DNA of 64,000 nt from an uncultured Eubacteriales bacterium (GTDB taxonomy: Bacteria > Bacillota > Clostridia > Christensenellales > Aristaeellaceae), in the NCBI GenBank assembly GCA_902781945.1, contig CACZLE010000003.1:39637-103636 (forward strand), given 5' to 3'. Below the pieces are notes generated by a model. The model did not search any database, was not told the origin of the DNA, and worked only from the letters and a program-made list of their open reading frames with translations. A program made the position numbers and the translations under genes. Numbering within the stretch: position 1 is the first letter of the stretch; every line of letters begins with the position of its first letter. Below are positions 34,800 to 61,020 of the stretch, piece by piece.

Positions 34800-34800
34800 T

Positions 34801-40539: not shown

Positions 40540-40740
40540 GAATATGAAGGCGTTTTCTGCTTTGCTTTTTTGTGATTTTCTTACTTTTTTTGAAAAAAAG
40601 GGTGGACATACAAAAAGTAATGTGGTATATTTATGGCTGAGTATTTCTGCTTTTTGCGTGCTTTTTTGTACGCTTGGACGGAGAAACTCTTGCGTTAGCA
40701 CGGAATGCATGACGGACTGAAACGGCAAAGGAAGCGTTCA

Positions 40741-41769
40741 ATGAGCAGATTTCGCGGCCATCATTCCCCACCGACCAGACGCCGGACGACAGTGAAGTTC
40801 GCCATCGCGCTGGCCGCGGCCCTCATCCTGGTGGTGGGCGGCTATTTGGTGGGTGAGTGGCTGGAGAACCGTTCCTACCAAGAGGAACGTCAGCAGATGA
40901 GCGAGAATTTCGGCCTGCTGCCCACCATGGAATACCAGGGGCAGACCTACATGCGCAGGCCGGAAGTCACCACCATGCTGCTGATGGGCGTGGATCAGCA
41001 CATGGACGAGGAGCCCACGGGCAGCCGTCACGGCGGACGCGCGGACTTCCTGCTGCTGATGGCCCTGGATCACAAAAACCAGAAGGTCTATCAGCTGCAA
41101 ATCGACCGCGACACCTTTACCGAGGTCCCCGTTGTGGGTGTGCTGGGCAACGAGGTCGGCACCCGCGCCATGCAGATCTGCCTGGCCTACAACTACGGCA
41201 ACAACAACGAGGAACGCTGCCGCCACACCGTGCAGGCCGTGCAGATGCTGCTCAACGACGAGCCCATCGAACTGGCCCTGGCGGTCAAGCTGGACGGTAT
41301 CGCGGTGCTCAACCAGGCCTTGGGCGGCATCCGGGTGACCATCCCGGAGGATATGACCGTTGTGGATCCCGCCTTTACGGCAGGGGCCACCCTGACCCTG
41401 ACGGATGCCCAGACCGAAAAGCTGGTGCGCGCCCGCATGACGGTGGGGGACGGGCTGAACGTCTCCCGTATGCGCAGGCAGCGGACCTTCCTGGAGGCTG
41501 CCACCCGGCAGCTGCGCAGCATGCTGGCGTCGGATTCCGACTTCGCCGGCAGGCTCTTTGACTCGCTGGAAGCGATTTCCAGCTACACCAATGTGACCCG
41601 CGGACGGCTGATCAACGAGGCCAACCGCGCGTACAACTATGATATTCAACCCGTCGATACATTGGCGGCTGAATATAAGATCGGCGCGCAGGAGCTGATG
41701 GAATGCCATGTGGACAAGGATGCAGTTACGGCATGGCTGATCAAAACGCTCTACGAGCCGAAAAATTGA
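40741..41769 (+). CDS. LCP family (LytR-CpsA-Psr) glycopolymer transferase
   Basis: N-terminal TM helix, then TMLLMGVDQ...GGRADFLLLMALD...QIDRDT core motifs. Confidence 0.85.
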   Translation: MSRFRGHHSPPTRRRTTVKFAIALAAALILVVGGYLVGEWLENRSYQEERQQMSENFGLLPTMEYQGQTYMRRPEVTTMLLMGVDQHMDEEPTGSRHGGRADFLLLMALDHKNQKVYQLQIDRDTFTEVPVVGVLGNEVGTRAMQICLAYNYGNNNEERCRHTVQAVQMLLNDEPIELALAVKLDGIAVLNQALGGIRVTIPEDMTVVDPAFTAGATLTLTDAQTEKLVRARMTVGDGLNVSRMRRQRTFLEAATRQLRSMLASDSDFAGRLFDSLEAISSYTNVTRGRLINEANRAYNYDIQPVDTLAAEYKIGAQELMECHVDKDAVTAWLIKTLYEPKN

Positions 41770-41783
41770 AGGGAGATAAAACA

Positions 41784-42416
41784 ATGAAAAAGACGATTGC
41801 GTTACTGTTGGTGGCCGTGATGGCGCTGTCTCTGACCTCTGCCTTCGCGAGCAGCCCTAAGAACTATGAGGAGCCCGTCACGGTGGTCACCCCCACTCCC
41901 GCTCCCGCTGCTCCCGCCGCCCCCGCTGCTCCTGCTGAAGAAGTAGAGGAAGAAGTCGAAGCCGAAAACCTGGTCGTTGCCGTCGTGGAGAGCGAAGCGG
42001 TGGACGAGGCTGTCGAAGAGATCAAAAAGATGGTCGCCGAAGAAAAGCCCGTCATTGAGTACTTCCCTGAAGAAACTCAGGAAGAAGTGAAGGCTGTTCT
42101 GCCCGAGACCGTGAAGGCTGAGGATCTGGAACTGAATGAGTTCGTCGGCATGGCCGTGGACAACTTTGAACAGGTTGTTGAAGAAGCGGACGAAGTTCGC
42201 GTTATCATCGCCTTCACCACCAAGTATGATCCTGAGCAGGAAGTGTTCCCCCTGATCGGTCTGGTGGACGAGGCCGGCAATGTGACCTGGGTTCTGATTG
42301 AAGCTGAAGTGCAGGAAGACGGCTCTCTGATGCTGATCATCCCCACCGACGTGCTGGAGAAGATGGGCAACGCCGCTTCCGTTCAGGTTGCTATTCTGAG
42401 CACTCCTCAGAAGTAA
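41784..42416 (+). CDS. secreted acidic protein, unknown function
   Basis: Signal peptide MKKTIALLLVAVMALSLTSAFA, a PTPAPAAPAAPAAPA linker and a Glu/Val-rich body. GGGAG sits 9 nt upstream of the ATG. Confidence 0.7.
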   Translation: MKKTIALLLVAVMALSLTSAFASSPKNYEEPVTVVTPTPAPAAPAAPAAPAEEVEEEVEAENLVVAVVESEAVDEAVEEIKKMVAEEKPVIEYFPEETQEEVKAVLPETVKAEDLELNEFVGMAVDNFEQVVEEADEVRVIIAFTTKYDPEQEVFPLIGLVDEAGNVTWVLIEAEVQEDGSLMLIIPTDVLEKMGNAASVQVAILSTPQK

Positions 42417-42430
42417 TCGATAAGTAATTG

Positions 42431-42466
42431 CGTACCCGATGGCCATATTAGCGGCCATCGGGTACG
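42431..42466 (+). terminator. strong hairpin after the acidic-protein gene (terminator candidate, no clear U-tract)
   Basis: 14-bp perfect stem CGTACCCGATGGCC / GGCCATCGGGTACG. Confidence 0.5.
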
Positions 42467-42565
42467 TATGATACGTTCTACAGACCAAATGGAGGCGGTC
42501 AGCATCCGACCGCGTTGTTTGGTTTCATGGGCTAAAAAACACAGTGGATAGAGCGGAGGATACCC

Positions 42566-43366
42566 ATGGCATCACCGGAAACAAAGGCATTACTGGAAAA
42601 TGAAAACCGCAAGCAGGGCATGCAGTCGGATACGATGGAAATCGATCTGGTTGAGTTGATGTACCGTTTGCTGGAAAAGGCGAAATATATCATTCTGGCA
42701 GCGCTGCTGGGAGCGATCATTTCCGGTGCATATACGGTTTTCCGGATCACGCCTTTGTACACCGCGACCTCCAAGCTGTATGTGGTCAACAGCGCCAACT
42801 CGGTCATCGACCTGTCCGCGCTGAACATGGGCACGCAGCTGGCGTCGGACTACAAGGAAGTCTTTTCCAACTGGCATGTGCATGAGCGCGTGCTGCAAAA
42901 GCTGGATCTTCCCTATAGTTATAAGCAGCTGAACGATATGGTTTCCGTCTCCAATTCCGAGTCCCAGCGTATCCTGCACATCAAGGTGACCTCTCCTTCG
43001 CCGGAGGAGGCCAAGCTGCTGGCGGATACCTACGCGCAGGTGGCACAGGAATTCATCGCAGAGACCATGAGCACCCAGCGCCCCAACATCTTCCAGGAAG
43101 CGCTGCGGCCCACGGCTCCTTCTTCGCCCAACAAGACCCGCAACATCATCCTGGGCTTCATGCTGGGAGCCATCCTGGCCGCCGGCATCGTGGTGGTGCA
43201 GTTCATCGTGGACGACAGGATCCACAGCGAAGAGGACATTACCAAATACCTGGATCTGCCCGTGCTTGGCATGATGCCCAGCCAGCGGCAGGAAGTAAAG
43301 GGTAATAAAAAGAAGCAGCCGCACAAGAAGGACAGCAATACCAAGCGGGAGGAGACTGAAAAATGA
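42566..43366 (+). CDS. Wzz/CpsC-type polysaccharide chain-length determinant (BY-kinase transmembrane modulator)
   Basis: 266 aa with EIDLVELMYRLLEKAKYIIL plus TM, a second TM near the C-terminus and a lysine-rich tail. GGAGGA upstream. Confidence 0.85.
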   Translation: MASPETKALLENENRKQGMQSDTMEIDLVELMYRLLEKAKYIILAALLGAIISGAYTVFRITPLYTATSKLYVVNSANSVIDLSALNMGTQLASDYKEVFSNWHVHERVLQKLDLPYSYKQLNDMVSVSNSESQRILHIKVTSPSPEEAKLLADTYAQVAQEFIAETMSTQRPNIFQEALRPTAPSSPNKTRNIILGFMLGAILAAGIVVVQFIVDDRIHSEEDITKYLDLPVLGMMPSQRQEVKGNKKKQPHKKDSNTKREETEK

Positions 43367-44079
43367 AACTGGCACAATTCAGACGCCTGAACCCGCTGGA
43401 TTACTCCGGCACGGAAGCCGTGAACACCATTTGTTCCAACTTGTCCTTCTCCGGACGGCATGTGCGGAAGATCGTCATTACCAGCTGCAATTCCGGCGAC
43501 GGCAAGAGCTATATGAGCGTGCAGATCGCCTATAACCTGGCCCAGCGCGGCAAGCGCGTGCTGCTGATCGACGCGGACTTGCGCAAATCCAATCTGGTCA
43601 GCCGCTATGGCATCACCACCGACGGCGAAATGACCGGCCTGGTGCACTATCTGGCAGGCTACAACGGACTGGAGGACGTGATCTACCGCACCAATATGGA
43701 GAACTTCCATCTGCTGCCGGTGGGCCGCGATATCGCCAATCCCATCCCGCTGCTGGACGCGCCCGCGTTCTCCGATCTGCTCAATTTCCTGGCGGAAAAG
43801 TACGACATGGTATTGTTGGACGCTCCGCCGGTGGGTCTGGTCATCGACGCGGCGGAAATCGCCCGCTGCTGCGACGGCGTGCTGCTGGTGGTCAAACACA
43901 GCCACACCCATCGCAAGGAAATGCAGGCGGCCAAGCAGCAGCTGGAACAGACCGGCTGCCCCATCCTGGGCTGCGTGCTCAACGACGTGTCCTTCGACAG
44001 TATCAGCGCGAAAAAATATTACAACAAGTCCTATTATTCCCATTACGGAGATTATTACCGTAAGAATAATAAGGACTGA
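43363..44079 (+). CDS. CpsD/CapB-type tyrosine-protein kinase (BY-kinase)
   Basis: Walker A SGDGKS, A' LLIDADLRKS, Walker B VLLDAPPV, and a C-terminal tyrosine cluster YYNKSYYSHYGDYYRK. Confidence 0.9.
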   Translation: MKLAQFRRLNPLDYSGTEAVNTICSNLSFSGRHVRKIVITSCNSGDGKSYMSVQIAYNLAQRGKRVLLIDADLRKSNLVSRYGITTDGEMTGLVHYLAGYNGLEDVIYRTNMENFHLLPVGRDIANPIPLLDAPAFSDLLNFLAEKYDMVLLDAPPVGLVIDAAEIARCCDGVLLVVKHSHTHRKEMQAAKQQLEQTGCPILGCVLNDVSFDSISAKKYYNKSYYSHYGDYYRKNNKD

Positions 44080-44094
44080 TCGCAGGGAACCGAA

Positions 44095-44808
44095 ATGCAG
44101 TTTGCCGATTTGCACCACCATGTGATCTACGGGGTAGACGATGGTCCGCAGACCTTCGAGGATGCGCAGGCCATGCTCCGCAGAGCCCATGAGAATGGGG
44201 TCACGGATATTGCCGCCACCTCCCATGCTACGCCAGGCCGTCATCGTTTTCCCATGGATACCTACCTGGAGCATCTGCGCAAAGAGCAGGCGTGGGCGGA
44301 CGAACAGGGCCTGGGGATCCGGCTGCATACCGGCTGTGAGATTCTGTATACGGACGAGACGGTTCGTCTGCTGCAGGACAACGCGATTCCCACCATTGAC
44401 GGCACGCGGCTGATCCTGGTGGAATTCCTGCCCGCAAACGATTTCAACCATATCCAGAATGCCGTGCGCAGGCTGGGCAACGCGGGTTACACCGTGATCG
44501 TGGCCCATGCGGAGCGGTATGACGGAACGCGCAAGGTGGAGGATCTGCGCGCCTTGCGGGAAGATCTTGGCGCATATATTCAAATCAATGCCCATACCTT
44601 CATTTCTCCCGGTGGTTTCTTCGCGAAGCGCTGGCTGAGAAAGGTGATGGAGAATGGATGCTGCGACCTGGCCGCCACGGACGCCCATAACACGTCCAGC
44701 CGCTCCTGCCAGATGAAAAAGTGTCATGAGACGATCATCAAGGAATGGGGACAGGACACCGCGAACAGCTTGTGCATCGAAACGCCCCGTCAATTACTGG
44801 GCATATAA
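44095..44808 (+). CDS. CpsB/YwqE-type PHP-family tyrosine-protein phosphatase
   Basis: DLHHHVIYGVDDGP and TSHATPG motifs. 237 aa. Confidence 0.85.
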   Translation: MQFADLHHHVIYGVDDGPQTFEDAQAMLRRAHENGVTDIAATSHATPGRHRFPMDTYLEHLRKEQAWADEQGLGIRLHTGCEILYTDETVRLLQDNAIPTIDGTRLILVEFLPANDFNHIQNAVRRLGNAGYTVIVAHAERYDGTRKVEDLRALREDLGAYIQINAHTFISPGGFFAKRWLRKVMENGCCDLAATDAHNTSSRSCQMKKCHETIIKEWGQDTANSLCIETPRQLLGI

Positions 44809-45009
44809 GAAACAGCTTCATATATGGCCTCGACAAAGTGATGCTTTGGCGGGCTTTTTTTATGCGTAGATCGAAAAGCAACTGCGGCTGTACGCGGGAA
44901 CAGAGACAATTTGGAATATCTTTGGTTGCGGAAACGAACAAAATCATATATAATATAGTTTGGTATGGTTTAGTTTTTGTCTGATAAGATACAAGAGAGG
45001 TGGAAATCG

Positions 45010-45897
45010 ATGAAGGGAATCATTCTGGCGGGCGGCGCGGGAACGCGGCTGTATCCATTGACCATGGTGACCTCCAAGCAATTGCTGCCGATTTACGATA
45101 AACCGATGGTCTATTATCCCTTGTCCACACTGATGCTGGCGGGGATCAAGGATATCCTGGTGATCAGCACGCCGGAGGATACCCCCCGCTTTGAGCATCT
45201 GCTGGGCGATGGAAGCCAGTTTGGCATTTCCCTGTCCTACAAGGTGCAGCCCAGCCCGGACGGCCTGGCCCAGGCGTTCATCCTGGGGGAAGAGTTTATA
45301 GGTGACGACGCCTGCGCCATGGTGCTGGGCGACAATATCTTTTATGGCAACGGCTTTGGCAGGATCCTGCGTTCCACTGTGGAGAATGCGGAGAAGAATG
45401 GCCGGGGCACGGTGTTCGGCTATTATGTGACCGATCCGGAACGCTTTGGCGTGGTGGATTTTGATGCAAACGGCAAGGCTGTCAGCATCGAGGAAAAGCC
45501 GGCCCATCCCAAGAGCAATTATGCGGTGACGGGCCTGTATTTCTATCCGGCGGGGGTCAGCGCCCGGGCAAAGCAGGTCAAGCCTTCCGCCCGGGGAGAA
45601 CTGGAAATCACCACGCTGAACGCCATGTATTTGCAGGACGGCCTGCTGGACGTGCAGCTGCTGGGCCGCGGCTTTGCCTGGCTGGACACCGGCACCATGG
45701 ACAGCCTGGTGGAGGCGGCGGATTTTGTGCGCATGGTGGAAAAGCGACAGGGCATCAAGATTTCCGCCCCGGAGGAAATCGCCTATAAATATGGCTGGAT
45801 CAGCCATGAGCAGCTGCTGGAATCGGCGGAAAAATATGGCAAGAGCCCCTATGGCGCGCATCTGCGCGCGGTAGCGGAAGGCAAGGTGCAATACTGA
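45010..45897 (+). CDS. rfbA: glucose-1-phosphate thymidylyltransferase
   Basis: [36 protein letters not shown] is a canonical RmlA N-terminus. Confidence 0.95.
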
Positions 45898-46460
45898 TGA
45901 ATAAGATCGAAACAAGTCTGCCCGGCGTATACATCATCGAGCCCCGGGTCTTCGGCGACCAGCGCGGGTATTTTATGGAAACCTGGTCCACCCGAAATTT
46001 TGAGGAAATGGGCCTGCATTATGATTTTGTGCAGGACAATCAGAGCTATTCCAGCCAGAAGGGCATCCTGCGGGGCATTCATTTCCAGAACGCGCCCTAT
46101 GCCCAGGCGAAGCTGGTGCGGGTCACCCGGGGAGCGGTGCTGGACGTGGCGGTGGATCTGCGGCGCGGCAGCCCCACCTATAAGCAATGGGTGGCGGTGG
46201 AACTGAGCGCCGAAAACAAGCGCATGGTCATGATCCCCCGGGGCTTCGGCCACGGTTTCAAGACCCTGACGGAGGATGTGGAATTCTGCTACAAGGTGGA
46301 TAACCTGTACAGCAAGGAATGTGATCGGGGCATACGCTTTGACGATCCGGAAATCGGCGTGGATTGGGGCGAGGTGACCCGGGAGCTGCTCAGCGAGAAG
46401 GATACCTATTCTCCGCTGCTGCGGGATTCGGACTGCAATTTCATATACGGGGAGGTATAA
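45897..46460 (+). CDS. rfbC: dTDP-4-dehydrorhamnose 3,5-epimerase
   Basis: GVYIIEPRVFGDQRGYFMETW and RGIHFQ motifs. Confidence 0.95.
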   Translation: MNKIETSLPGVYIIEPRVFGDQRGYFMETWSTRNFEEMGLHYDFVQDNQSYSSQKGILRGIHFQNAPYAQAKLVRVTRGAVLDVAVDLRRGSPTYKQWVAVELSAENKRMVMIPRGFGHGFKTLTEDVEFCYKVDNLYSKECDRGIRFDDPEIGVDWGEVTRELLSEKDTYSPLLRDSDCNFIYGEV

Positions 46461-46463
46461 ACC

Positions 46464-47498
46464 ATGGGCCAGACCATCATTGTCACCGGCGGCGCCGGTT
46501 TTATTGGCAGCAACTTCATTTTTCATATGCTCAAGGCGCATCCGGAGGACCGCATCGTCTGTCTGGATAAGCTGACCTACGCGGGTAATCTGTCCACCCT
46601 CCAGTCCGTCATGGATCATCCGGCTTTCCGCTTTGTCAAATTGGATATCTGTGACCGGGAGGGCGTCTACCGCCTGTTTGAGGAGGAGCATCCCGATATC
46701 CTGGTCAATTTTGCCGCGGAGAGCCACGTGGACCGCAGCATCGAGGATCCCGGCGTGTTCCTGCAAACCAATATCCTGGGTACGGCCACGCTGATGGATG
46801 CCTGCCGCAAGTACGGCATCGGGCGCTATCATCAGGTGTCCACCGACGAGGTGTACGGCGATCTGCCCCTGGATCGGCCCGACCTGTTCTTCACGGAGGA
46901 GACCCCCATCCATACCAGCAGCCCGTACAGCGCCTCCAAAGCCAGCGCTGATCTGCTGGTCATGGCCTATCACCGCACCTTCGGTCTGCCCGTGACCATC
47001 AGCCGGTGCTCCAACAACTATGGCCCCTATCACTTCCCGGAAAAGCTGATCCCCCTGATGATCGCCAACTGCCTGAACGACAAACCCCTGCCTGTCTATG
47101 GCCAGGGCCTCAACGTGCGGGATTGGCTCTATGTGGAGGACCATTGCCGCGCCATCGACCTGATCATCCACAATGGACGCGTGGGCGAGGTCTACAACGT
47201 GGGCGGCCACAACGAAATGCGCAACATCGATATCGTCAAGCTCATCTGCAAGGAGCTGGGCAAGCCCGAAAGCCTGATCACCTATGTGGCGGACCGCAAG
47301 GGCCACGATATGCGCTATGCCATCGATCCCACCAAGATCCACAATGAACTGGGATGGCTGCCCGAAACCAGGTTTGCCGACGGCATCAAAAAGACCGTAA
47401 AATGGTATCTGGAAAACCGCGGCTGGTGGGAGGAGATCATCAGCGGCGAATATCAGAACTACTATGAAAAGATGTACGGCAGCAGGGAGAAAGCCTGA
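46464..47498 (+). CDS. rfbB: dTDP-glucose 4,6-dehydratase
   Basis: IIVTGGAGFIGSNF, STDEVYG and YSASKA motifs. Confidence 0.95.
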   Translation: MGQTIIVTGGAGFIGSNFIFHMLKAHPEDRIVCLDKLTYAGNLSTLQSVMDHPAFRFVKLDICDREGVYRLFEEEHPDILVNFAAESHVDRSIEDPGVFLQTNILGTATLMDACRKYGIGRYHQVSTDEVYGDLPLDRPDLFFTEETPIHTSSPYSASKASADLLVMAYHRTFGLPVTISRCSNNYGPYHFPEKLIPLMIANCLNDKPLPVYGQGLNVRDWLYVEDHCRAIDLIIHNGRVGEVYNVGGHNEMRNIDIVKLICKELGKPESLITYVADRKGHDMRYAIDPTKIHNELGWLPETRFADGIKKTVKWYLENRGWWEEIISGEYQNYYEKMYGSREKA

Positions 47499-48373
47499 TG
47501 AAAGTATTTGTGACGGGCGTGGGCGGCCAGCTGGGCCACGACGTGGTGGAGGAGCTGCTGCGGCGCGGCCATGAAGCCGTGGGCTCCGATCTGACACCGC
47601 CCGCTGTGCCGCTGGATATCACGGATGAAATTGCCGTGGGAAAAATGATCGCTGAGATCCATCCCGACGCGGTGATCCATTGCGCCGCCTGGACGGCGGT
47701 GGATGCGGCGGAGGAACCGGAAAACCGGGAGAAGGTCTTTGCCATCAATGCGGGCGGCACCCGGAATATCGCCGCGGCCTGCCGGGCTGCGGAGGCCAAA
47801 ATGATCTATATCAGCACGGATTACGTGTTTGACGGCCAGGGGGAGCAGCCCTGGCGGCCCGATGATCCGGCTTTCGCCCCGCTGAACGTCTACGGCCAGA
47901 GCAAGCTGGCGGGCGAGCGGGCGGTGGAAGAACTGCTGGAGCAGTATTTCATCGTGCGCATCGCCTGGGTCTTTGGCAAAAACGGCAAAAATTTCGTCCG
48001 GACCATGCTGAACGTGGGCCGCACCCATGATACGGTCCGGGTGGTCAACGACCAGTTTGGCACGCCCACCTATACCTTCGATCTGGCGCGGCTGCTGGTG
48101 GACATGGCGGAGACGGAAAAATATGGCCGCTATCATGTGACTAATACCGGCGGCTATATCTCCTGGTATGATTTCACCCGGGAGATCTACCGTCAGGCCG
48201 GATTGGATACCCGTGTGATCCCCGTGACCACGGAGGAATATGGCCTCAGCCGCGCGGCACGCCCGCGCAATTCCCGGCTGAACCAGGAAAAGCTGCGTCA
48301 GATGGGCTTTGAGCCCCTGCCTGTCTGGCAGGACGCCCTGGGCCGGTATCTGAAAGAACTTGAACAAGAGTAA
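47498..48373 (+). CDS. rfbD: dTDP-4-dehydrorhamnose reductase
   Basis: MKVFVTGVGGQLG, ISTDYVFDG and YGQSKLAGE motifs. Confidence 0.95.
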   Translation: MKVFVTGVGGQLGHDVVEELLRRGHEAVGSDLTPPAVPLDITDEIAVGKMIAEIHPDAVIHCAAWTAVDAAEEPENREKVFAINAGGTRNIAAACRAAEAKMIYISTDYVFDGQGEQPWRPDDPAFAPLNVYGQSKLAGERAVEELLEQYFIVRIAWVFGKNGKNFVRTMLNVGRTHDTVRVVNDQFGTPTYTFDLARLLVDMAETEKYGRYHVTNTGGYISWYDFTREIYRQAGLDTRVIPVTTEEYGLSRAARPRNSRLNQEKLRQMGFEPLPVWQDALGRYLKELEQE

Positions 48374-48389
48374 AGGAACCGAGCAACAG

Positions 48390-50396
48390 ATGAAAGCACT
48401 GATTTTAAATTCCGGTCTGGGCCGCCGCATGGGCGTGCTCACCTCGGAGCATCCCAAATGCATGACGGAGATCTCCGGTACCGAGACCATCCTCAGCCGC
48501 CAATTGCGGCTGCTGGCCGCGGCGGGCATCCGGGATGTGGTGATCACCACCGGCTATTTTGATAACATCATCGTCAATTACTGCCATTCCCTGCGGCTGC
48601 CGCTGGAAATCACCTTTGTGCACAATCCGCGCTATGCCGAAACCAACTATATTTACAGCATCTATTGCGCCCGGGAGCTGCTGGACGACGATATCCTGCT
48701 GATGCATGGCGATCTGGTGTTCGAGCCCTCGGTGCTGGACGACCTGCTGGCGGAAAAGCGCAGCTGCATGAAGGTCAGCTCCACCCTGTCCCTGCCGGAA
48801 AAGGATTTCAAGGCCGTGGTGCGCGATGGCCGCGTCTATCAGGTGGGCGTGGAGTTTTTCAGCTCCGCCATGGAGGCCCAGGCCCTCTATAAGCTGAACC
48901 GCGCCGATTGGCGGGTCTGGCTGGATGAGATCGTCCGCTTCTGCGAGTCCGGCCAGGACAATTGCTATGCTGAAAAGGCCCTGAACGGCATTTCGGACCG
49001 CTGCCCCATTTACGCCTGCGACGTGGGCAACCGCCTGTGCGCCGAGATCGATACCCCGGAAGATCTGGCGGCGGTGTCGGGACGGCTGGCGGAAATCGAA
49101 AACCGCACGGTGTATATGTGCTTTTCCACCGATATGATCCATTCCGGTCATATCGCCATCATCCGCAAGGCGGAAAAGCTGGGCAAGCTCATCGTGGGCG
49201 TGCTCTCGGACGAGGCCGTGGTGTCCTATAAGCGCTTCCCCCTGCTGCCCTTCGACGAGCGCAAGACCATGTTTGAAAACATCACCGGCGTATGGCGGGT
49301 GGTGGAGCAGAACACCCTGAGCTACAAGGAAAACCTGCTCAAATACAAGCCCACCTACGTGGTGCACGGGGACGACTGGTGCACGGGCTTCCAGCGTCCG
49401 GTGCGGGACGAGGTGTGCGCCGTGCTGGCCTCCTATGGGGGACAGCTGGTGGAGTATCCCTATGCCGCGGACGAAAAATTCAAGGAATTGGACAAGCGCG
49501 CCCGGGCGGAATTGTCCACCCCGGATATCCGCCGCGCCCGCCTCAAAAAGGTGCTGGCCATGAAGGGCCTGGTCACCGCCATGGAGGCCCACAGCGGCCT
49601 TACCGGCCTCATCGTGGAAAACACCGTGGTGGAGGAGGAAGGCGGCGCCCGGCAGTTTGACGCCATGTGGATCAGCTCCCTGTGCGATTCCACCGCCAAG
49701 GGCAAGCCGGATATCGAGCTGGTGGATATGACCAGCCGCTTCCGCACCCTGGACGACATCTGCGAGGTGACCACCAAGCCCATCATCTTTGACGGCGACA
49801 CCGGCGGCCTCACCGAGCATTTTGTCTACACCGTCCGGTCCCTGGAGCGCATCGGCGTGTCCATGGTGATTATCGAGGACAAGACGGGCCTGAAAAAGAA
49901 CAGCCTCTTTGGCACCGAGGTGGCCCAGACCCAGGATACCGTCGAGCATTTTTGCGAAAAGATCCGGGCGGGCAAAAACGCCCAGCGCACCCGGGATTTC
50001 ATGATCTGCGCCCGCATCGAAAGCCTGATCCTGGAGCAGGGCATGGAGGACGCGCTCAGCCGTGCCTTCGCCTATGTGGAGGCCGGAGCCGACGCCATCA
50101 TGATCCACAGCCGCCGGAAGGACCCGGCGGAGATCTTTGAATTTGTGGAGCGCTTCCGCGCCCGGGACGCCGTGACACCCCTGGTGGTGGTGCCCACCTC
50201 CTTTAATACCGTCACCGAGGAAGAATTCAAGGCCCGGGGCGTCAATATCGTCATCTACGCCAATCAGCTGACCCGCACGGGCTTCCCCGCCATGCAGAAC
50301 GCCGCCCGCTTGATCCTGCAATCCCACCGAGCCAAGGAATGCGACGACATCTGCATGCCCTTCAAGGATATCATCCGTCTGATCCCGGAGGAATGA
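48390..50396 (+). CDS. three-domain protein: LicC/PntC-like nucleotidyltransferase + HxGH cytidylyltransferase + phosphoenolpyruvate mutase
   Basis: aa 1-240 carry MKALILNSGLGRRMG (NTP_transf_3 type). aa about 245-375 carry MCFSTDMIHSGHIAII (HxGH). The C-terminal 290 aa carry DGDTGG and the PEP-mutase-diagnostic EDKTGLKKNS (EDKx5NS, nt 49875-49904). Confidence 0.85.
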   Translation: MKALILNSGLGRRMGVLTSEHPKCMTEISGTETILSRQLRLLAAAGIRDVVITTGYFDNIIVNYCHSLRLPLEITFVHNPRYAETNYIYSIYCARELLDDDILLMHGDLVFEPSVLDDLLAEKRSCMKVSSTLSLPEKDFKAVVRDGRVYQVGVEFFSSAMEAQALYKLNRADWRVWLDEIVRFCESGQDNCYAEKALNGISDRCPIYACDVGNRLCAEIDTPEDLAAVSGRLAEIENRTVYMCFSTDMIHSGHIAIIRKAEKLGKLIVGVLSDEAVVSYKRFPLLPFDERKTMFENITGVWRVVEQNTLSYKENLLKYKPTYVVHGDDWCTGFQRPVRDEVCAVLASYGGQLVEYPYAADEKFKELDKRARAELSTPDIRRARLKKVLAMKGLVTAMEAHSGLTGLIVENTVVEEEGGARQFDAMWISSLCDSTAKGKPDIELVDMTSRFRTLDDICEVTTKPIIFDGDTGGLTEHFVYTVRSLERIGVSMVIIEDKTGLKKNSLFGTEVAQTQDTVEHFCEKIRAGKNAQRTRDFMICARIESLILEQGMEDALSRAFAYVEAGADAIMIHSRRKDPAEIFEFVERFRARDAVTPLVVVPTSFNTVTEEEFKARGVNIVIYANQLTRTGFPAMQNAARLILQSHRAKECDDICMPFKDIIRLIPEE

Positions 50397-51445
50397 CCAT
50401 GGAGCAGCTCACCCTGTTCGATCTGAGCGACCTGCGCCCGCTGCTGGCTGGCAAGCGGTTCCTGCTGGTGCACGGGCCTTTCTTTGACAGCCTGCCCATC
50501 GCCTCGTTCTTTTCCGCGCTGGACGCCGTGCCCTTTACCGGCTTTACGCCCAATCCCCTCTACGAACAGGTGGCGGTGGGCGTGGACCGCTTCCGGGAAA
50601 ACGGCTGCCAGGCCATTGTGGCCGTGGGCGGCGGCAGCGCCATGGACGTGGCCAAGTGCGTCAAGCTCTTTTGCCGTATGGAGCCCGCGGTCAATTATCT
50701 GACCCAGGAAAAACGGGATACCGGCGTGCCGCTGTACGCCATTCCCACCACGGCGGGTACGGGCAGCGAGGCCACCCGCCACGCGGTGATCTATTATCGG
50801 GGGGAGAAGCAGTCCGTGTCCCATCCCAGCATCGTGCCGGACGCCGCCGTGCTGCTGCCCCAAGTGCTGGAGGGCCTGCCCCTCTATCAGAAAAAGTGCA
50901 CCCTGCTGGACGCCCTGTGCCAGGCCATCGAGTCCTGGTGGTCTAGGAGCGCCACGGAAGAGAGTGCCGCCCATTCCCGGCGGGCCATCCGGGGCATCCG
51001 GGAGAACTGGCAGGCCTATATTGAGCACGGCGACGCCGAAGCCGCCCACCAGATCCTGCTGGCGGCCAACGAGGCCGGCAAGGCCATCACCATCACCGCC
51101 ACCACGGCCCCCCATGCCATGAGCTATAAGCTGACCTCCCTCTATCATCTGCCCCACGGCCACGCCGTGGCCCTGAGCATGGCCCAGGTGTGGCCCTACA
51201 CCCGGGATCACGCCGGGGAGGATGTTCGCCTGCAAAAGGTGCTGGCGGAGTTGGAGGACCTGGGCGGCTATGGCTGGTTCATGGAGCTGCTGCGCAGCCT
51301 GGACATGGCTTCTCCCGTGGCCGGGGATCGGGAGGCGGAATTGCGCCTGCTGACGGCCTCCGTCAATCCCATCCGCCTGCAAAATCATCCCATCCCGCTC
51401 AGCGCCGAGACGCTGCGGGCGTTTTATGAAAAAATCGTGCAATAA
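50393..51445 (+). CDS. iron-containing (group III) alcohol dehydrogenase, phosphonoacetaldehyde reductase-like
   Basis: GGGSAMDVAK, PTTAGTGSE and LPHGHAVAL motifs. ATGA overlap with the PEP mutase gene. Confidence 0.8.
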   Translation: MTMEQLTLFDLSDLRPLLAGKRFLLVHGPFFDSLPIASFFSALDAVPFTGFTPNPLYEQVAVGVDRFRENGCQAIVAVGGGSAMDVAKCVKLFCRMEPAVNYLTQEKRDTGVPLYAIPTTAGTGSEATRHAVIYYRGEKQSVSHPSIVPDAAVLLPQVLEGLPLYQKKCTLLDALCQAIESWWSRSATEESAAHSRRAIRGIRENWQAYIEHGDAEAAHQILLAANEAGKAITITATTAPHAMSYKLTSLYHLPHGHAVALSMAQVWPYTRDHAGEDVRLQKVLAELEDLGGYGWFMELLRSLDMASPVAGDREAELRLLTASVNPIRLQNHPIPLSAETLRAFYEKIVQ

Positions 51446-51501
51446 ATACAAGGGGAGAGCGCCGCGCGTTCTTCCTTTTTGCGTTTCAGGAGGCGATACC
51501 C

Positions 51502-52002
51502 ATGGAGATCAGAAAGACCCGGCTGGAAGATCTGAACACCGTCATGGTCCTTTATGCCCATGCCCGGGCTTTTATGGCGGAGCAAGGCAATCCCAATCAA
51601 TGGGGTCCCACCTGCTGGCCTCCGGAGGACCTGATCCGCCAGGATATCGCCCGGGGCAAGAGCTACGTCTGCCTGTCGGAGGGACGGATCGTGGGCGTGT
51701 TCTATTTTGATCAGGGGCCGGACATCGAGCCCACCTACGCCCAGATCGAGGACGGCGCCTGGCGGGACCAAAGCCCCTACGGCGTGGTGCACCGCATCGC
51801 GTCGGACGGCACCCAGCGGGGGACGGGGGCCTTCTGCATCAACTGGGCCTATGGGCAATGCGGCCATCTGCGCATCGATACCCATGGGGACAACCGGGTG
51901 ATGCAGGGCTTGCTTGCCAAGCTGGGTTTCGTCCATTGCGGCACCATCCACGTGCGGGAGGATAACGATCCCCGCCTGGCCTATGAAAAGACGGGCTTGT
52001 AA
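51502..52002 (+). CDS. GNAT family N-acetyltransferase
   Basis: 166 aa with a GNAT-like core (GRIVGVFYF...HRIASDGTQRGTGAF) and a C-terminal GFVHCG. AGGAGG upstream. Confidence 0.75.
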   Translation: MEIRKTRLEDLNTVMVLYAHARAFMAEQGNPNQWGPTCWPPEDLIRQDIARGKSYVCLSEGRIVGVFYFDQGPDIEPTYAQIEDGAWRDQSPYGVVHRIASDGTQRGTGAFCINWAYGQCGHLRIDTHGDNRVMQGLLAKLGFVHCGTIHVREDNDPRLAYEKTGL

Positions 52003-52025
52003 TTGCATGGGCGATATGGTATAAT
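51997..52025 (+). promoter_or_regulatory. sigmaA-type promoter with extended -10
   Basis: TTGTAA, 17-nt spacer ending in TGG, then TATAAT (52020-52025). Confidence 0.5.
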
Positions 52026-52092
52026 CAATGCAAGTTCTATCGTTGTTTCTGCATACATTTACGGAAGGAAACTGTCGTTGAGGAGGAGCCAT

Positions 52093-54087
52093 ATGAAAAA
52101 GAGCACAGCGATCACGATCATAGCCATCCTTGCGGTGATCATCGCCATTCTGGGCATTCTGTTCTTCACCAATCAAAAGAAGAACGGCGACGAGATCAGC
52201 AGCCTGAAAGAGCTTGCCGCCTCCCGTTCGGCCCAGTTGGACGCGCTGGAGGCTACGCTGAACGATAAAGAAACCAGCCTGGCCGCCCAGGAGGGCGAAT
52301 TGGAGACCGTGCGGGCCGCCTTTGCGGATCAGACCCAGGAGCTGGAGCAGTTGAAGGGCGAATCCACCCAGGCCGCCAGCGCCCTGGAGGAGCTCAAGGC
52401 CACCCTGTCCGCCAAGGAGCAGGAGGCTGCCGCCGCCCTGGAGAACGCCAAGGCCAGCGCCGCCCAGGCGGCGGAAAAGGCCGCGGGCGAGCTGGCGGAC
52501 GCCAAGGCCGCTGCCGCCGCCGAGCTGGAGCGCTTCCAGACCAGCGCCCAGGAGACTGCAGCCGCCGCTGCCGCCGATTTGGAGAACGCCCGGAGCCAGG
52601 CTGCCGCCGAGCTTGAAAAGGTAAAGACCGCCGCCGCCACGGAGTTGCAGACGGCCAAGGCTGCCGCCGAAGAAAAGCTGGCCGCCGTGCAGAAGGACGC
52701 GGCCGAAGCCGCCAAGGCTGCCGCCGCGGAGATGGAATCTTTCAAGACGAACGCCGCCGCGGAGCTGGAGAGCGTGAAGGCTGCCGCTGCTGAGGCCGCC
52801 CAGACCGCCGCCGCAGAGTTGGCATCTGCCAAGGAGACTGCCGCTGCCGAGTTGGAGAGCGCCAGGGCCGCTGCCGCCGCTGAATTGAAGAAGGTCCAGG
52901 CCGATGCTGAGGAAGAGGTGGCGGCGGTGCGCAAGGAGGCCGCCGAGGCCGCCAAGGCCGCTGCTGCGGAGCTGGAAACCGTCAAGGCCGATGCCGCCGC
53001 GGAACTGGAGGCCGTAAAGGCCGAGGCGGAAAAGGCTGCCCAGACCGCTTCCGCCGGGCTGGAGAACCTGAAAGAGGAAGCCCGCCAGGCTGTGGCGGCT
53101 GAAATGGAAACGTTGAAGGCGGAGGCATCCCAGGCGGCGGAAAAGGCCGCCGCGGAGCTGGAGAGCGTCAAGACCGCTGCTGCTGCCGAGCTGGAAAAGG
53201 CGAAGGCCGATGCGGCTGCCGAACTGGAGAAGGTGAAGGCGGACGCCGCCAAGGCTGGCGAAGCCGCCGCTGCGGAACTGGAGAAGGTGAAGGCGGACGC
53301 CGCCAAGGCTGGCGAAGCCGCCGCTGCCGAGCTGGAAAAAGTCAAAGCGGACGCAGCGAAAGCCTCCGAAGCCGCTGCCGCCGAGCTGGAAAAAGTCAAA
53401 GCGGACGCAGCGAAAGCCTCCGAAGCCGCTGCCGCCGAGCTGGCTGCCGCCAAGGCCGAGGCCGCCCAGGCCATGGAAAACGTGGCCGCAGAGATCGAAA
53501 AGGTGAAGACCGAGGCTGCCGCTGCCATGGATAACGCCGCCGCGGAGCTGGCCTCCGCCAAGGCCGAAGCTGCCCAGACCGCCGCCGCTGAATTGGCCGC
53601 CGCCAAGGAGAACGCCGACGCCGCCCTGTCCGCGCTGACCGCGGAACTCACCGCCGCCAAGGCTGAGATCCAGCAGAAAGCTGCCGATTACGCCGACCTG
53701 GAAAGCAAGGCGGAGTACAAGGGCCTGTCCTTTGACGAGATGATGGCCGCGCAGAAGCAGCTGAACAGCGCCCTGTGGGCCTCGGATGAATGGGAATCCG
53801 TGGTGATGCCCTGCGGCGTGTACGCCATCGGCCAGGATATCCCCGCCGGACGCTGGACCATCCGCGCCAGCGAGGGCCCCGCGGAGGTCAAGGTGGGCAA
53901 TCACCTGGACGAGACCGGGAACGAGCTGGTGGAGCCCTATGTGATGCACTTTACGGATGACAAGAGCCTGAATTATGATGTGGGCGTGGTCTGGAACCTG
54001 CAGGAGGGCTCCTACCTGGTGGTGAATCAGAACCCCGTCACCTTCACCCAGACCCCCGCTTCTCCCTTCGAGTTCGTCACCAAATAA
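52093..54087 (+). CDS. membrane-anchored Ala/Glu/Lys-rich coiled-coil repeat protein with globular C-terminal domain
   Basis: AGGAGG at 52081. N-terminal TM (ITIIAILAVIIAILGILFF), about 500 aa of A/E/K heptad/hendecad-like repeats, then a non-repetitive domain of about 130 aa (SDEWESVVMPCGVYAIGQDIPAGRWTI...). Confidence 0.8.
   Translation: MKKSTAITIIAILAVIIAILGILFFTNQKKNGDEISSLKELAASRSAQLDALEATLNDKETSLAAQEGELETVRAAFADQTQELEQLKGESTQAASALEELKATLSAKEQEAAAALENAKASAAQAAEKAAGELADAKAAAAAELERFQTSAQETAAAAAADLENARSQAAAELEKVKTAAATELQTAKAAAEEKLAAVQKDAAEAAKAAAAEMESFKTNAAAELESVKAAAAEAAQTAAAELASAKETAAAELESARAAAAAELKKVQADAEEEVAAVRKEAAEAAKAAAAELETVKADAAAELEAVKAEAEKAAQTASAGLENLKEEARQAVAAEMETLKAEASQAAEKAAAELESVKTAAAAELEKAKADAAAELEKVKADAAKAGEAAAAELEKVKADAAKAGEAAAAELEKVKADAAKASEAAAAELEKVKADAAKASEAAAAELAAAKAEAAQAMENVAAEIEKVKTEAAAAMDNAAAELASAKAEAAQTAAAELAAAKENADAALSALTAELTAAKAEIQQKAADYADLESKAEYKGLSFDEMMAAQKQLNSALWASDEWESVVMPCGVYAIGQDIPAGRWTIRASEGPAEVKVGNHLDETGNELVEPYVMHFTDDKSLNYDVGVVWNLQEGSYLVVNQNPVTFTQTPASPFEFVTK
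53221..53436 (+). repeat. four tandem 54-bp coding repeats (18 aa: ELEKVKADAAKA[G/S]EAAAA)
   Basis: Units 53221-53274 and 53275-53328 differ by 1 nt. Units 53329-53382 and 53383-53436 are identical. The two pairs differ at 12 synonymous sites and 1 non-synonymous codon (counted by hand). Confidence 0.9.
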
Positions 54088-54189
54088 GGATTTCGGCATT
54101 GAAAATCCTCTGTTCCTATGCTATCATACAAGGCGCGGACATCCCATGGCGGGGTGCCGCGCCTTTTTGAAATACAGCGGAGGCACAGC

Positions 54190-55539
54190 ATGACGCAGCT
54201 CAATCTGATGACGGAAGGCAGCCCGCGGCGCAGGATCCTGCGCTTCGCCCTGCCCATCCTGGGCGGATATTTTTTCCAGCAGCTCTATAACACGGTGGAC
54301 GCGCTGATCGTGGGCAATTTTCTGGACGCGGACGCCCTGGCGGCGGTGACCTCCACCTCCTCCTATATGTATCTGCTCATCGGCTTCGTGACGGGCTTTT
54401 CCACCGGCGCGGGGATCATCATCGCCCGCCACATCGGCGCGGGCAACGCGGAAAACACCCGCAAGGCCGTGCATACGGCGGTGGCGCTGGGATTGGTGCT
54501 CAGCGCCTTGCTGACGGCGGTGGGCATCCTGATCACCCCGCCCATCCTGCGGCTGATGGGAACGCCGGAGGGGGTCATTGGCCGCTCCTCCGCCTATCTG
54601 CGGGTTTATTTCGCCGGGTCCTTCGCCCTGGTGATGTACAATATGCTGGTCAGCATCCTGCAGGCCTCCGGGGAGAGCCGCTTCCCACTGTTATGCCTGG
54701 TGGCCAGCTCCTTGGTCAATATCGCCCTGGACGTGGTGTTCGTGGCCCTTTTCCATATAGATGTGGAGGGCGCAGCCCTGGCCACGGTACTTTCCGAGGT
54801 GCTCAGCCTGATTCTGGTGGCATGGAGGCTGCTGCGCACGCGGGAAAGCATCCGCCTGGAGCCCCGGCGGATCGCCTTTGACCTGCATAACCTCAAATTC
54901 ATCCTGCGCTACGGCTTCCCCACGGCCATGCAGGGCTGCGTCATCGACCTGTCCAACATGCTCATCCAGTCCTATATCAACAGCTTTGGCCGGGACGCCA
55001 TGGCGGGCATCGGAGCCAGCCTGAAAATCGAGGGCTTCATGTTCCTGCCGGTCACGGCCTTCTCCATGGCGCTCACCACCTTCGTCTCCCAGAATGTGGG
55101 CGCCCGGCGCATGGACCGCGTGCGGGAGGGCACGGCGTTTGGCCTGCGCTGCACGGCGGCCCTGCTGCTGGGCCTGGGCGTGCTGGCCCGGTTCTGCGCC
55201 CCCTGGATGATCGCCTTCTTCAACGCCGATCCTGAGATCATCCGTTACGGCGCGGGCCGCACCACTGTCTGCGCCCTGTTCTATTGCCTGCTGGGCTTTT
55301 CCCATACCGCCTCCGCCGTGATGCGCGGCCTGGGCAAGCCCATGACGCCCATGCTGGTCATGCTGGTATGCTGGTGCGCCGTCCGCGTGGCGCTGCTGTT
55401 CACCGTGGGTCAGTTTTTCCACGATATCCGTCTGGTTTATTGGGTGTATCCCTTCACCTGGACGCTGTCCACCCTGGTCTACCTGATCGATTTCAAGCGG
55501 ATGCGGCTGTTCAGCCGGACAGAAAACGCAAATTTGTGA
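54190..55539 (+). CDS. MATE family efflux transporter
   Basis: ILRFALPILGGYFFQQLYNTVDALIVGNFL is a typical MATE N-terminus. 449 aa, about 12 TM. Confidence 0.9.
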   Translation: MTQLNLMTEGSPRRRILRFALPILGGYFFQQLYNTVDALIVGNFLDADALAAVTSTSSYMYLLIGFVTGFSTGAGIIIARHIGAGNAENTRKAVHTAVALGLVLSALLTAVGILITPPILRLMGTPEGVIGRSSAYLRVYFAGSFALVMYNMLVSILQASGESRFPLLCLVASSLVNIALDVVFVALFHIDVEGAALATVLSEVLSLILVAWRLLRTRESIRLEPRRIAFDLHNLKFILRYGFPTAMQGCVIDLSNMLIQSYINSFGRDAMAGIGASLKIEGFMFLPVTAFSMALTTFVSQNVGARRMDRVREGTAFGLRCTAALLLGLGVLARFCAPWMIAFFNADPEIIRYGAGRTTVCALFYCLLGFSHTASAVMRGLGKPMTPMLVMLVCWCAVRVALLFTVGQFFHDIRLVYWVYPFTWTLSTLVYLIDFKRMRLFSRTENANL

Positions 55540-55584
55540 TGATTCCTAAGGAATCTCTGTTTCAATCAGCGGCATCTCTTATAG

Positions 55585-55755
55585 GAAAGACATATTCCGG
55601 GTGAATGCTTGATCCCTCTCGCTGATGCGCATGAAGTGAGTATTGACGAGCTCTGCGGCGTTGCCAAGATGCGAACGGTGGAGGATGAACTGAGAGAGAA
55701 AGTTGACCGCACCATTGGCACCTCGCGAACCCAAGATTTGGCCCAAAGCCCATAG
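55585..55755 (+). pseudogene. orphan C-terminal fragment of an XRE/Cro-type HTH protein
   Basis: An open frame begins right after a TAG, with no start codon: ...LIPLADAHEVSIDELCGVAKMRTVEDELREKVDRTIG. The L..LA....VS.DEL.G pattern is the end of a Cro/C1 HTH domain. Confidence 0.4.
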
Positions 55756-55871
55756 AATAACCTGGCTTTTTTGTGGATCGTGCTTTTCGCTCCGTGGCCC
55801 TGAAAAGGCTGAAATCGCCCTTCGGGCCGCGGCAAAAAACGCAAAAAGAAAAACCCTTGAAAATCAAGGGT

Positions 55872-56273
55872 TCAGCCCATCTTCAAACCCCTGTTTTCAG
55901 GCGAAAACAGGGGTTTTCCATATCCACAACTCGAAACAAGAGAAAAAAATAAAGCCTTTATCAGGCGTTTCATATTTTGTACCGCGGCGGTCAGAAAGCA
56001 CTGCTCCCGCATGTTCTGGATACCGAGCATGCGGGCATAGCGGAGGCCGTGGTTTTCTTTCGCCTCCGCAAAGGATCGTTCAATTGTCTGCTTTCTCCAG
56101 CTGTAAATGCGTTTTCCCTTGTGCGTCTTCGTAAAATGTATAATATCGTCCAGGGAATCCTGCCATACATGCCTTTCCACCATCCTTCTGCTTATGCTTG
56201 TTCCAAAGCATTCGTTTCTTCGCGGACAATTCCGGCATTTCTTGCTGTCGCTGAAGTATGATGCCAATGGCAA
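55872..56273 (-). mobile_element. truncated DDE transposase (IS1182/IS5-superfamily C-terminal region only)
   Basis: CRNCPRRNEC...GKRIYSWRKQTIERSFAEAKENHGLRYARMLGIQNMREQCFLTAAVQNMKRL matches the C-terminal zinc-ribbon plus DDE_Tnp_1_6-type tail. The N-terminal part of about 300 aa is missing. Confidence 0.7.
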
Positions 56274-56400
56274 TACCTACGGCAGTCCCCAAACCACCGG
56301 CGCGGATGGCACCGCGACCTGGACGCAGCTGCCTTATGGAGCCTACTCCGTGAAGGAAACCGGCACGCCTACCGGCTATAACGTAGATCTGAACCAATAT
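56246..56400 (+). pseudogene. fragment of a Cna-B (SpaA/prealbumin-fold) surface protein
   Basis: LKYDANGNTYGSPQTTGADGTATWTQLPYGAYSVKETGTPTGYNV is a single Cna-B repeat. It has no start, signal peptide or LPXTG, and it abuts the transposase fragment. Confidence 0.5.
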
Positions 56401-56434
56401 GAACAGAATTATTCACCGTATCGGAGGTGTGCTT

Positions 56435-56740
56435 ATGTTCCTGGTCAAATTGCCTTTCCGTATTCTTTCTCTGACTGTCCTGGCGCTGCTGATCGTGATC
56501 CGCGTCGCAAGCCTGCTCGTGACCGGTATTTCATCTCTTGTGACCAACCTGATCGGGATGACCGCCGTGCTGGCGGCGGCTGGCATCTGGATGTTCCAGT
56601 TGGGCCGTGACCATGATGCTTACATGATGATGATGCTGGCCTTTGGCCTGTTCCTGATCCTGGCTCCGAAGGCCGCTGATTGGATCGTAGATAAAGCCAC
56701 TACGCTGATTGCAAAAATCACCTTTCTGATTACTGTCTAA
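56435..56740 (+). CDS. small membrane protein (101 aa), unknown function
   Basis: GGAGGTG sits 6 nt upstream of the ATG at 56435. Three hydrophobic helices. Followed by a hairpin at about 56760-56795. Confidence 0.55.
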   Translation: MFLVKLPFRILSLTVLALLIVIRVASLLVTGISSLVTNLIGMTAVLAAAGIWMFQLGRDHDAYMMMMLAFGLFLILAPKAADWIVDKATTLIAKITFLITV

Positions 56741-58147: not shown

Positions 58148-58163
58148 GGATATCTTCCTCTCC

Positions 58164-59078: not shown

Positions 59079-59103
59079 GGTAGTTGTCTCTCCTTTTGCC
59101 TGC

Positions 59104-60003: not shown

Positions 60004-60021
60004 CAGTCGTTCCTCCCTTCC

Positions 60022-60939: not shown

Positions 60940-61020
60940 CTTTCTGTGATAGAAAGGGCGCCCCCCGCCCGAACGGGGAAACGGGGGGCGCCGGGATTAT
61001 GCGTTTTTACAGGATGCGGA

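Follow-up and report, generated by a model that had tools for sequence, protein, structure and literature searches.

A ppd-less variant of a widespread, putative phosphonoglycan cassette in a lineage of Clostridia, with a predicted tri-domain phosphoenolpyruvate mutase

Fusions of phosphoenolpyruvate (PEP) mutase (Ppm) with nucleotidyltransferase domains have been counted in a large survey, where, among 1485 motif-bearing Ppm sequences, 33% were joined to PF12804, 23.6% to PF01467 and 2.9% to both (Rice et al., 2019, Nat Commun 10:3698; PMC6697681). The cytidylyltransferase (CyTase) domain of one fusion protein, Fom1 of fosfomycin biosynthesis in Streptomyces wedmorensis, yields the cytidine monophosphate derivative of 2-hydroxyethylphosphonate (HEP), CMP-HEP (PMC6697681). 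Here we analyse a 64-kb stretch of DNA from an uncultured Eubacteriales bacterium (positions 26786-90785 of contig ERZ27280330 k141_290830, for which gene calls with precomputed Pfam matches were available), hereafter called the window. It carries a gene for a protein that joins all three domains, followed by a gene for an Fe-type alcohol dehydrogenase (Fe-ADH, or ADH). Related loci normally continue with a gene for phosphonopyruvate decarboxylase (Ppd, gene ppd), and the form of that cassette found in the window's clade is a derived one, shortened in this lineage.

The second and third domains of the window protein have the CyTase-Ppm architecture of Fom1, the Fe-ADH corresponds to FomC, and the gene that comes next in relatives corresponds to Fom2, the Ppd; the predicted product, CMP-HEP, would be that of Fom1 (PMC6697681). 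The window differs from the fosfomycin system in its extra N-terminal domain, which resembles LicC and PntC, in having no Fom3, Fom4 or FomD and no equivalent of Fom2, and in its setting, which is a cell-surface polysaccharide locus and not an antibiotic cluster. In Pfam terms its architecture is the same as that of the PF12804+PF01467+Ppm class of Rice et al. (PMC6697681); that class was counted and never characterised, whereas here we find one tight family with a conserved order of tri-domain gene, ADH and Ppd. A literature search retrieved no paper characterising the tri-domain family. To our knowledge, none of its members has been studied biochemically.

A scan of species-representative genomes recovered at least 590 stretches that encode relatives of the tri-domain protein; the gene-order counts given below are based on the best 80. 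These 80 relatives are full length and 74-94% identical to the window protein. They come from Oscillospiraceae, Lachnospiraceae and Ruminococcus, including [Clostridium] symbiosum ATCC 14940 and R. flavefaciens ND2009, and a few are from metagenome-assembled genomes (MAGs) labelled Treponema, Sphaerochaetaceae, Gastranaerophilales, Bacteroides (including Bacteroides thetaiotaomicron) and Prevotella. A word-indexed search returned 8000 matches, the best 120 of which are all 655-675 amino acids (aa) long and at least 81% identical; they share the CyTase-Ppm core and, except for five slightly shorter entries, possess the N-terminal nucleotidyltransferase (NTase) domain, and some, from Clostridia or Ruminococcus MAGs, are titled 'phosphoenolpyruvate mutase'. 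In a library clustered at 50% identity, one representative (P0121) spans all three domains, the other members being CyTase-Ppm proteins (about 433 aa, Fom1-like), NTase-Ppm proteins (about 550-580 aa) or fragments. Because a single representative covers the three domains and the best 80 relatives are so similar, the tri-domain enzyme is, as judged from sequence, one tight and widely spread family. A preliminary description of the window had considered two NTase domains on one mutase to be unusual, a view that does not survive the earlier count of the class (2.9% of Ppm; PMC6697681) and the number of stretches that encode relatives.

In order to define the canonical gene order, all open reading frames (ORFs) of the 80 loci were extracted and clustered, 75 loci having room for a downstream gene. 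An orthologue of the window ADH lies directly downstream of the tri-domain gene in 73 of these 75, and directly after the ADH comes a protein of about 372 aa with a GDG...NN motif (67 loci, plus four where it is cut by the contig end; 71/75). This protein is a Ppd according to NCBIfam (TIGR03297, 467 bits against a cut-off of 312.5), with PF02776 (TPP_enzyme_N) and PF02775 (TPP_enzyme_C). Of the 80 loci, 36 have a gene for LicD (20 loci) or for a CDP-glycerol glycerophosphotransferase-like protein (19 loci) at most 10 kb away, often as the next gene upstream. In one locus (L090, 84% identity), independent gene calls read, in order, two family 2 glycosyltransferases (GT2), LicD, EpsG, a family 4 glycosyltransferase (GT4), Glyphos_transf, the tri-domain protein, Fe-ADH, a thiamine pyrophosphate (TPP) enzyme, a flippase and an acyltransferase. 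With LicD or TagF-like proteins in 36 loci and a full polysaccharide locus in L090, glycan decoration is a well-supported prediction for the family. Two further observations concern these loci. The tri-domain protein keeps its 74-94% identity across families and even nominal phyla, the adjoining ADH only 40-57% and Ppd about 65-80%, a contrast that points to very strong constraint, to recent spread by horizontal transfer or to wrongly binned contigs. Moreover, two MAGs each contain two full tri-domain/ADH/Ppd cassettes on separate contigs (L040 and L064 in MGBC165045; L068 and L071 in Lapin-003-2__bin46).

The window's own copy ends after the ADH. We checked for the missing genes in five overlapping loci (L086, L005, L004, L001 and L088) that together cover the window, 4.8 kb upstream and 6 kb downstream, about 75 kb in total. 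Among the Pfam-annotated genes of the window and these flanks there is no TPP (thiamine diphosphate, ThDP) enzyme, class-V aminotransferase, LicD, Glyphos_transf (TagF-like) or CDP-alcohol transferase. Likewise, tblastn searches of the window gave nothing meaningful with four Ppd proteins from related loci (E<=10) and no match with LicD and TagF-like proteins from related loci (E<=1e-3), so that the reported lack of ppd, aminotransferase and LicD-type transferase in the 64 kb is borne out. A hidden or degraded ppd was considered and rejected: the tblastn search was negative at E<=10 with SEG off, and the spacer of 56 nucleotides (nt) between the ADH and the following gene, which encodes a GNAT-type acetyltransferase, contains a terminator-like hairpin that begins 5 nt past the ADH stop, where relatives carry ppd. 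The Ppm-Ppd core pair is not complete locally, there being no TIGR03297-type Ppd or other TPP enzyme in the window and its flanks, and the transferases of Pnt/Lic-type surface tailoring (LicD, TagF-like or CDP-alcohol-type), represented in the 36 related loci mentioned above, are absent from the window.

Assemblies at 100%, 97% and 94% identity all carry rmlACBD, the tri-domain gene, the ADH, the acetyltransferase gene and a gene for an Ala-rich protein, without ppd; because three assemblies share this truncated arrangement, the loss of ppd is real and stable and not an assembly artefact. The nearest relative that bears ppd (L007) is at 83.5% identity. Two loci from other species (L037 and L042) also have the tri-domain gene and ADH without ppd, and since the nearest relatives of both carry it, there have been at least three independent losses of ppd. 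Other partial cassettes, whose neighbours were identified by eye, combine the tri-domain gene with ppd and lack the ADH (L010, and L080 from R. flavefaciens ND2009) or have housekeeping genes straight after a lone tri-domain gene (L014). The preliminary description had treated the missing ppd as a feature of the system; given Ppd in 71 of 75 related loci, it is instead a trait of particular lineages.

Turning to the protein itself, the ORF at 48390-50396(+) encodes 668 aa counted from its ATG, and an in-frame TTG is found at 48360. Pfam assigns PF12804/PF00483 to aa 1-122, PF01467 to aa 248-342 and PF13714 to aa 390-642 and, together with NCBIfam, agrees with the proposed joining of a LicC/PntC-like NTase, a cytidylyltransferase and a PEP mutase in one ORF. 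The C-terminal part scores 401.2 bits with TIGR02320 (PEP_mutase equivalog; cut-off 319.55), and the sister models stay far below their cut-offs (given in brackets): Pphn_pyruv_hyd at 142.5 (374.4), prpB methylisocitrate lyase at 92.3 (354.4) and CPEP mutase at 39.7 (420), which argues against a grouping with relatives of isocitrate lyase or carboxy-PEP mutase. The EDKx5NS gating-loop motif, already pointed out as diagnostic, reads EDKTGLKKNS at aa 496-505 (nt 49875-49904), each of its positions being 95-100% conserved in the family across 80 species. In an alignment to 1M1B, all nine residues of the Mytilus PEP mutase that we take to be catalytic or Mg-binding (D58, D85, D87, E114, K120, N122, S123, R159 and H190) pair with identical residues. 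By these sequence criteria the C-terminal domain is a bona fide PEP mutase.

The middle domain had been described as TagD-like. It is much closer to the CyTase domain of Fom1 (PDB 5X3D, 130 bits, 48% identity over 124 aa) than to TagD (1COZ, 35 bits), and it stands directly N-terminal to the Ppm domain, as in Fom1. Within its HSGH motif, H251, G253 and H254 are 99-100% conserved and S252 87% conserved across the 80 species. These features are of the Fom1 type, and homology, together with the Ppm/Ppd/ADH context in relatives, predicts that the domain would convert cytidine triphosphate and 2-HEP to CMP-HEP.

The assignment of the N-terminal domain as LicC/PntC-like holds, with 42.8 bits for PF12804 (cut-off 27), a match to PF00483, and LicC (1JYK, 43 bits) and Tde-PntC (6PD1, 40 bits) as its closest, if distant, relatives in the PDB. 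Because its motifs (GxGxR, as GLGRR, at aa 9-13; PK at 22-23; HGD at 106-108; EIDxPxD at 219-225) show about 99% conservation in the 80 species, this domain probably acts as a second nucleotidyltransferase. It shares the fold family and the GxGxR...K signature with PntC (Tde1415, Ari1348) and LicC, but the similarity, at 40-43 bits, is too low for a sequence-based comparison of the pockets. The window cassette also differs from these systems in having neither a transaminase for 2-aminoethylphosphonate (AEP) nor a choline kinase, and since the former is lacking, AEP is not an obvious substrate of this domain. Close relatives of the N-terminal domain (47-61% identity) are fused straight to an Fe-ADH in four library proteins of 589-616 aa (P0181, P0221, P0256 and P0262), and a fifth (P0125, 751 aa) has the order NTase-CyTase-Fe-ADH without Ppm. 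Such 'Rosetta-stone' fusions tie the NTase functionally to the ADH step. We found no description of NTase-Fe-ADH fusions in the literature on phosphonate pathways that we examined.

The window ADH has PF00465 in common with the PhpC-type reductases and HEP dehydrogenases (PhpC, FomC, DhpG, AglG, P. fungorum PhpC and PsrA), and its orthologues in relatives are flanked by Ppm and Ppd, whereas in the window ppm adjoins and ppd is absent. It remains far under the cut-off of TIGR03405 (PsrA, PhpC-type), with 135.4 bits against 423.7; this is its second-best NCBIfam match, and ErcA scores similarly (137.6). PsrA of TIGR03405 is highly similar to verified PhpC, and PhpC enzymes are very divergent from each other, with a mean identity of 39% (PMC13576164), so that sequence alone does not fix the substrate of the ADH. 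Of the earlier assignment to a FomC/PhpC type, the membership in the Fe-ADH family stands (PF00465, PF25137), and the more specific part finds no confirmation in the TIGR03405 score. The ATGA overlap proposed between the two genes exists as an ATG at 50393, but a Shine-Dalgarno sequence (GGAGGA, 50386-50391) lies 1 nt from this codon and 7 nt from a second ATG at 50399. As this spacing fits the latter, which independent gene calls also choose (348 aa), the overlap is not certain; the genes are adjacent and probably translationally coupled.

By homology with Fom1, Fom2 and FomC, the canonical cassette (LicD and/or TagF-like transferase, NTase-CyTase-Ppm, Fe-ADH, Ppd) would make an activated phosphonate and transfer it. 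The Ppm domain would convert PEP to phosphonopyruvate; Ppd would decarboxylate this to phosphonoacetaldehyde, thereby pulling an unfavourable equilibrium; the ADH would reduce phosphonoacetaldehyde to HEP; the Fom1-type domain would form CMP-HEP; and LicD or a TagF-like enzyme would move the phosphonyl group onto a glycan. At this locus the window's clade has only the two middle genes, grafted behind an rmlACBD operon and followed by the terminator-like hairpin. Many Clostridia of gut and rumen carry this putative phosphonoglycan cassette, and on balance we think it probable, though far from assured, that the window contains a truncated copy of it, whose genes still work with Ppd and a transferase supplied from another locus of the genome, possibly a second cassette. 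A second locus bearing ppd is plausible because some MAGs carry two copies of the cassette. For the family, which has the Fe-ADH, a true Ppd and a middle domain that in the window protein is 48% identical to the Fom1 CyTase, the synthesis of CMP-2-HEP, as proposed in the preliminary description, finds good support in homology and gene context. Decoration of the rhamnose polysaccharide, also proposed there, is suggested by the apparent co-transcription with rmlACBD, and with no phosphonate-attaching transferase in the window we do not retain it as a conclusion.

HEP and CMP-HEP as products, a Ppd provided in trans and a glycan as the target are predictions from context and homology. Several points weigh against the working truncated copy. 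Neither ppd nor a transferase gene occurs in the roughly 75 kb of the window and flanks, which makes supply in trans an assumption, and two separate functions would have to be provided by other loci. With the only PhpC-type model the ADH scores far too low to reach the cut-off, and its putative substrate follows from gene context only. Finally, the partial cassettes of other species (L037, L042, L010, L080 and L014) could mean that decay is ongoing.

This last point leads to the idea of a functionless remnant, in which recombination moved the two middle genes behind rmlD, no phosphonate is made and gene loss is under way. It would account for the absence of both flanks of the cassette (the upstream transferases and the downstream ppd), for the hairpin in the place of ppd, for a transposase fragment nearby (55818-56129) and for the partial cassettes of other species. 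Selective constraint was measured as the ratio of non-synonymous to synonymous substitution rates (dN/dS; dS 0.25-0.41) between the window and L006, both without ppd. The ratio is 0.128 for the tri-domain gene (0.17, 0.08 and 0.11 for its N-terminal, CyTase and Ppm domains) and 0.24 for the ADH, comparable with rmlB, rmlC and rmlD (0.06-0.14). Neither gene has a frameshift or stop in the assemblies at 94-100% identity, and the tri-domain protein matches the other species in 306 of the 307 columns where these reach at least 95% conservation. These results make a dead remnant rather unlikely.

The same constraint acts on a Ppm domain without a local ppd, and this could also be read as a Ppd-independent route, where the Fe-ADH makes phosphonolactate from phosphonopyruvate in the manner of VlpB, or one of the fused NTase domains cytidylylates phosphonopyruvate, and the product is a nucleotide-activated C3 phosphonate instead of CMP-HEP. 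Branch points that do without Ppd exist elsewhere, namely reduction by VlpB, transamination by PalB and condensation by FrbC (PMC8942020). In addition, ppd was lost at least three times independently with the tri-domain gene and ADH left intact, and the direct fusion of the N-terminal NTase to Fe-ADH in other proteins means that the order of the steps is not established. However, of 96 columns with at least 90% conservation among ppd-linked ADHs, the window ADH retains 92, and the ppd-less enzymes (four deviations in the window, one in L037, none in L042) are indistinguishable at these columns from the canonical ones, which range from 0 to 13. We also know of no Fe-ADH of this type that reduces phosphonopyruvate. 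Candidate signs of a new function were rejected: no substitution at columns conserved in ppd-linked ADHs is shared by the ppd-less loci, as a neofunctionalised ADH would require; a small loop deletion near aa 276-279 of the ADH also occurs in the ppd-linked L016 and L058; and the only clade-specific change at conserved sites of the tri-domain protein is L61I. Constraint, together with an ADH that shows no sign of a changed substrate, thus argues against a dead remnant, gives no support to Ppd-independent chemistry, which we regard as quite unlikely, and fits Ppd and transferase encoded elsewhere. A more specific version, for which we see a slim chance at best, is that the two-gene unit is self-sufficient in ppd-less lineages, the equilibrium being pulled by reduction or cytidylylation towards a nucleotide-activated C3 phosphonate such as CMP-phosphonolactate; if true, this would account for the frequent fusion of NTases to the enzyme that opens the pathway.

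If the genes served salvage or catabolism, with the ADH interconverting exogenous HEP and phosphonoacetaldehyde and the CyTases activating HEP or AEP scavenged from the diet or from neighbouring microbes, the cell could do without making phosphonates de novo through Ppd. Enzymes of the PhpC type work in both directions and have been co-opted for HEP catabolism, and many phpC genes lie outside clusters with pepM and ppd (PMC13576164); moreover, phosphonate producers are common in the same habitats. Nevertheless, gene calls show no phnX, phnA/phnY, phnW or phosphonate transporter adjoining the cassette, the transferase would still be missing from the window, and the Ppm domain would be superfluous, yet it shows the least divergence, with a dN/dS of 0.11. 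We consider such a use highly improbable.

The features of the locus are collected in Table 1. The LCP, Wzz, BY-kinase and rfb genes named in the preliminary description as flanking the cassette are present in the Pfam-annotated gene calls, together with CpsB. Because the hairpin comes directly after the ADH and the rmlD stop is only 16 nt before the start of the tri-domain gene, the transcription unit appears to consist of rmlACBD, the tri-domain gene and the ADH.

Table 1. Positions, within the window, of the cassette genes and domains and of the adjoining features.
Feature	Position	Strand	Basis
LCP (LytR_cpsA_psr), ORF of 210-237 aa without family matches, Wzz, BY-kinase (CbiA/AAA_31), CpsB phosphatase	40705..44808	+	Pfam; NCBIfam LCP match
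rmlA, rmlC, rmlB, rmlD (dTDP-rhamnose synthesis)	45009..48373	+	Pfam NTP_transferase, dTDP_sugar_isom, Epimerase/GDP_Man_Dehyd, RmlD_sub_bind
Domain 1, LicC/PntC-like sugar-nucleotidyltransferase fold, aa 1-235	48390..49094	+	PF12804/PF00483, PDB matches
Domain 2, predicted Fom1-type cytidylyltransferase, aa 236-375; HxGH is HSGH, aa 251-254	49095..49514	+	PF01467, 5X3D match
Domain 3, predicted PEP mutase, aa 376-668	49515..50396	+	TIGR02320 score and EDKTGLKKNS
Fe/Zn alcohol dehydrogenase, putative phosphonoacetaldehyde reductase (PhpC/FomC-type)	50399..51445	+	PF00465 and PF25137, gene context
Terminator-like hairpin, 13 pairs and T-rich tail	51450..51478	+	Top-ranked terminator-like site in 40000-56500

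The gene behind the hairpin (51502-52002, +) encodes a 166-aa GNAT-type acetyltransferase (PDB 2PC1, 52 bits; no Pfam match at E<0.01 and no NCBIfam match) and, among the 80 related loci, is confined to the window's clade. It was considered as the missing pathway enzyme and rejected, given its match to 2PC1, its position behind the hairpin and its restriction to the clade. It is followed at 52003-54087 (+; start of the gene call at about 52093) by a protein of 646-694 aa in which a hydrophobic N-terminal segment precedes a very long repeat region rich in Ala, Glu and Lys, while the C-terminal domain is free of repeats; neither Pfam nor NCBIfam gave a match for it. Its gene contains 54-nt tandem repeats (53215-53443, 4.2 copies, 91% matches), and the size of the protein differs among strains (646, 664 and 712 aa). 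Next comes a MurJ/MatE-like flippase gene (54118-55539) and, just downstream, a fragment of a DDE_Tnp_1_6 transposase (103 aa, 55818-56129, -), which makes a rearrangement near the end of the polysaccharide locus plausible. As a whole, the region 40705-55539 resembles a capsule locus, with its regulatory module (LCP, Wzz, BY-kinase, CpsB), rml genes and flippase; no initiating or elongating glycosyltransferase and no polymerase was found within it, the nearest glycosyltransferases (GT4, GT2) being at 15082-17160.

Farther away, a cobalamin operon (about 20709-36421, +) begins with a corrinoid/iron ABC importer (Peripla_BP_2, FecCD, ABC) and continues with cbi/cob genes (two TP_methylase genes, CbiG, CbiD, CobA/CobO, CbiC, CbiA, CbiJ, CobQ-like, CobD, CobT, CobU, CobS and a CobC-like phosphatase). 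On the other side lie a cluster resembling those for sugar-acid utilisation (56942-62280, -), with a GlcNAc 2-epimerase family protein, a DHDPS/NanA-like lyase, two ABC permeases and a solute-binding protein, and a GntR regulator with a GDSL lipase (62438-63880, +).

The at least 590 species-genome stretches with tri-domain relatives include those of the cultured [Clostridium] symbiosum ATCC 14940 and Ruminococcus flavefaciens ND2009, and because the cassette is widespread in gut and rumen Clostridia, it may be common for gut microbes to decorate their cell-surface glycans with HEP-type groups. To this the window adds a variant that lacks ppd and is still under constraint, a modest puzzle and not a new pathway. 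Should the complete genome turn out to have no Ppd at all, a new means of drawing the PEP mutase reaction forward would be indicated. More probably, the variant shows that phosphonate pathways can be split between loci, and such cases would be overlooked by genome mining that demands ppm and ppd in one cluster.

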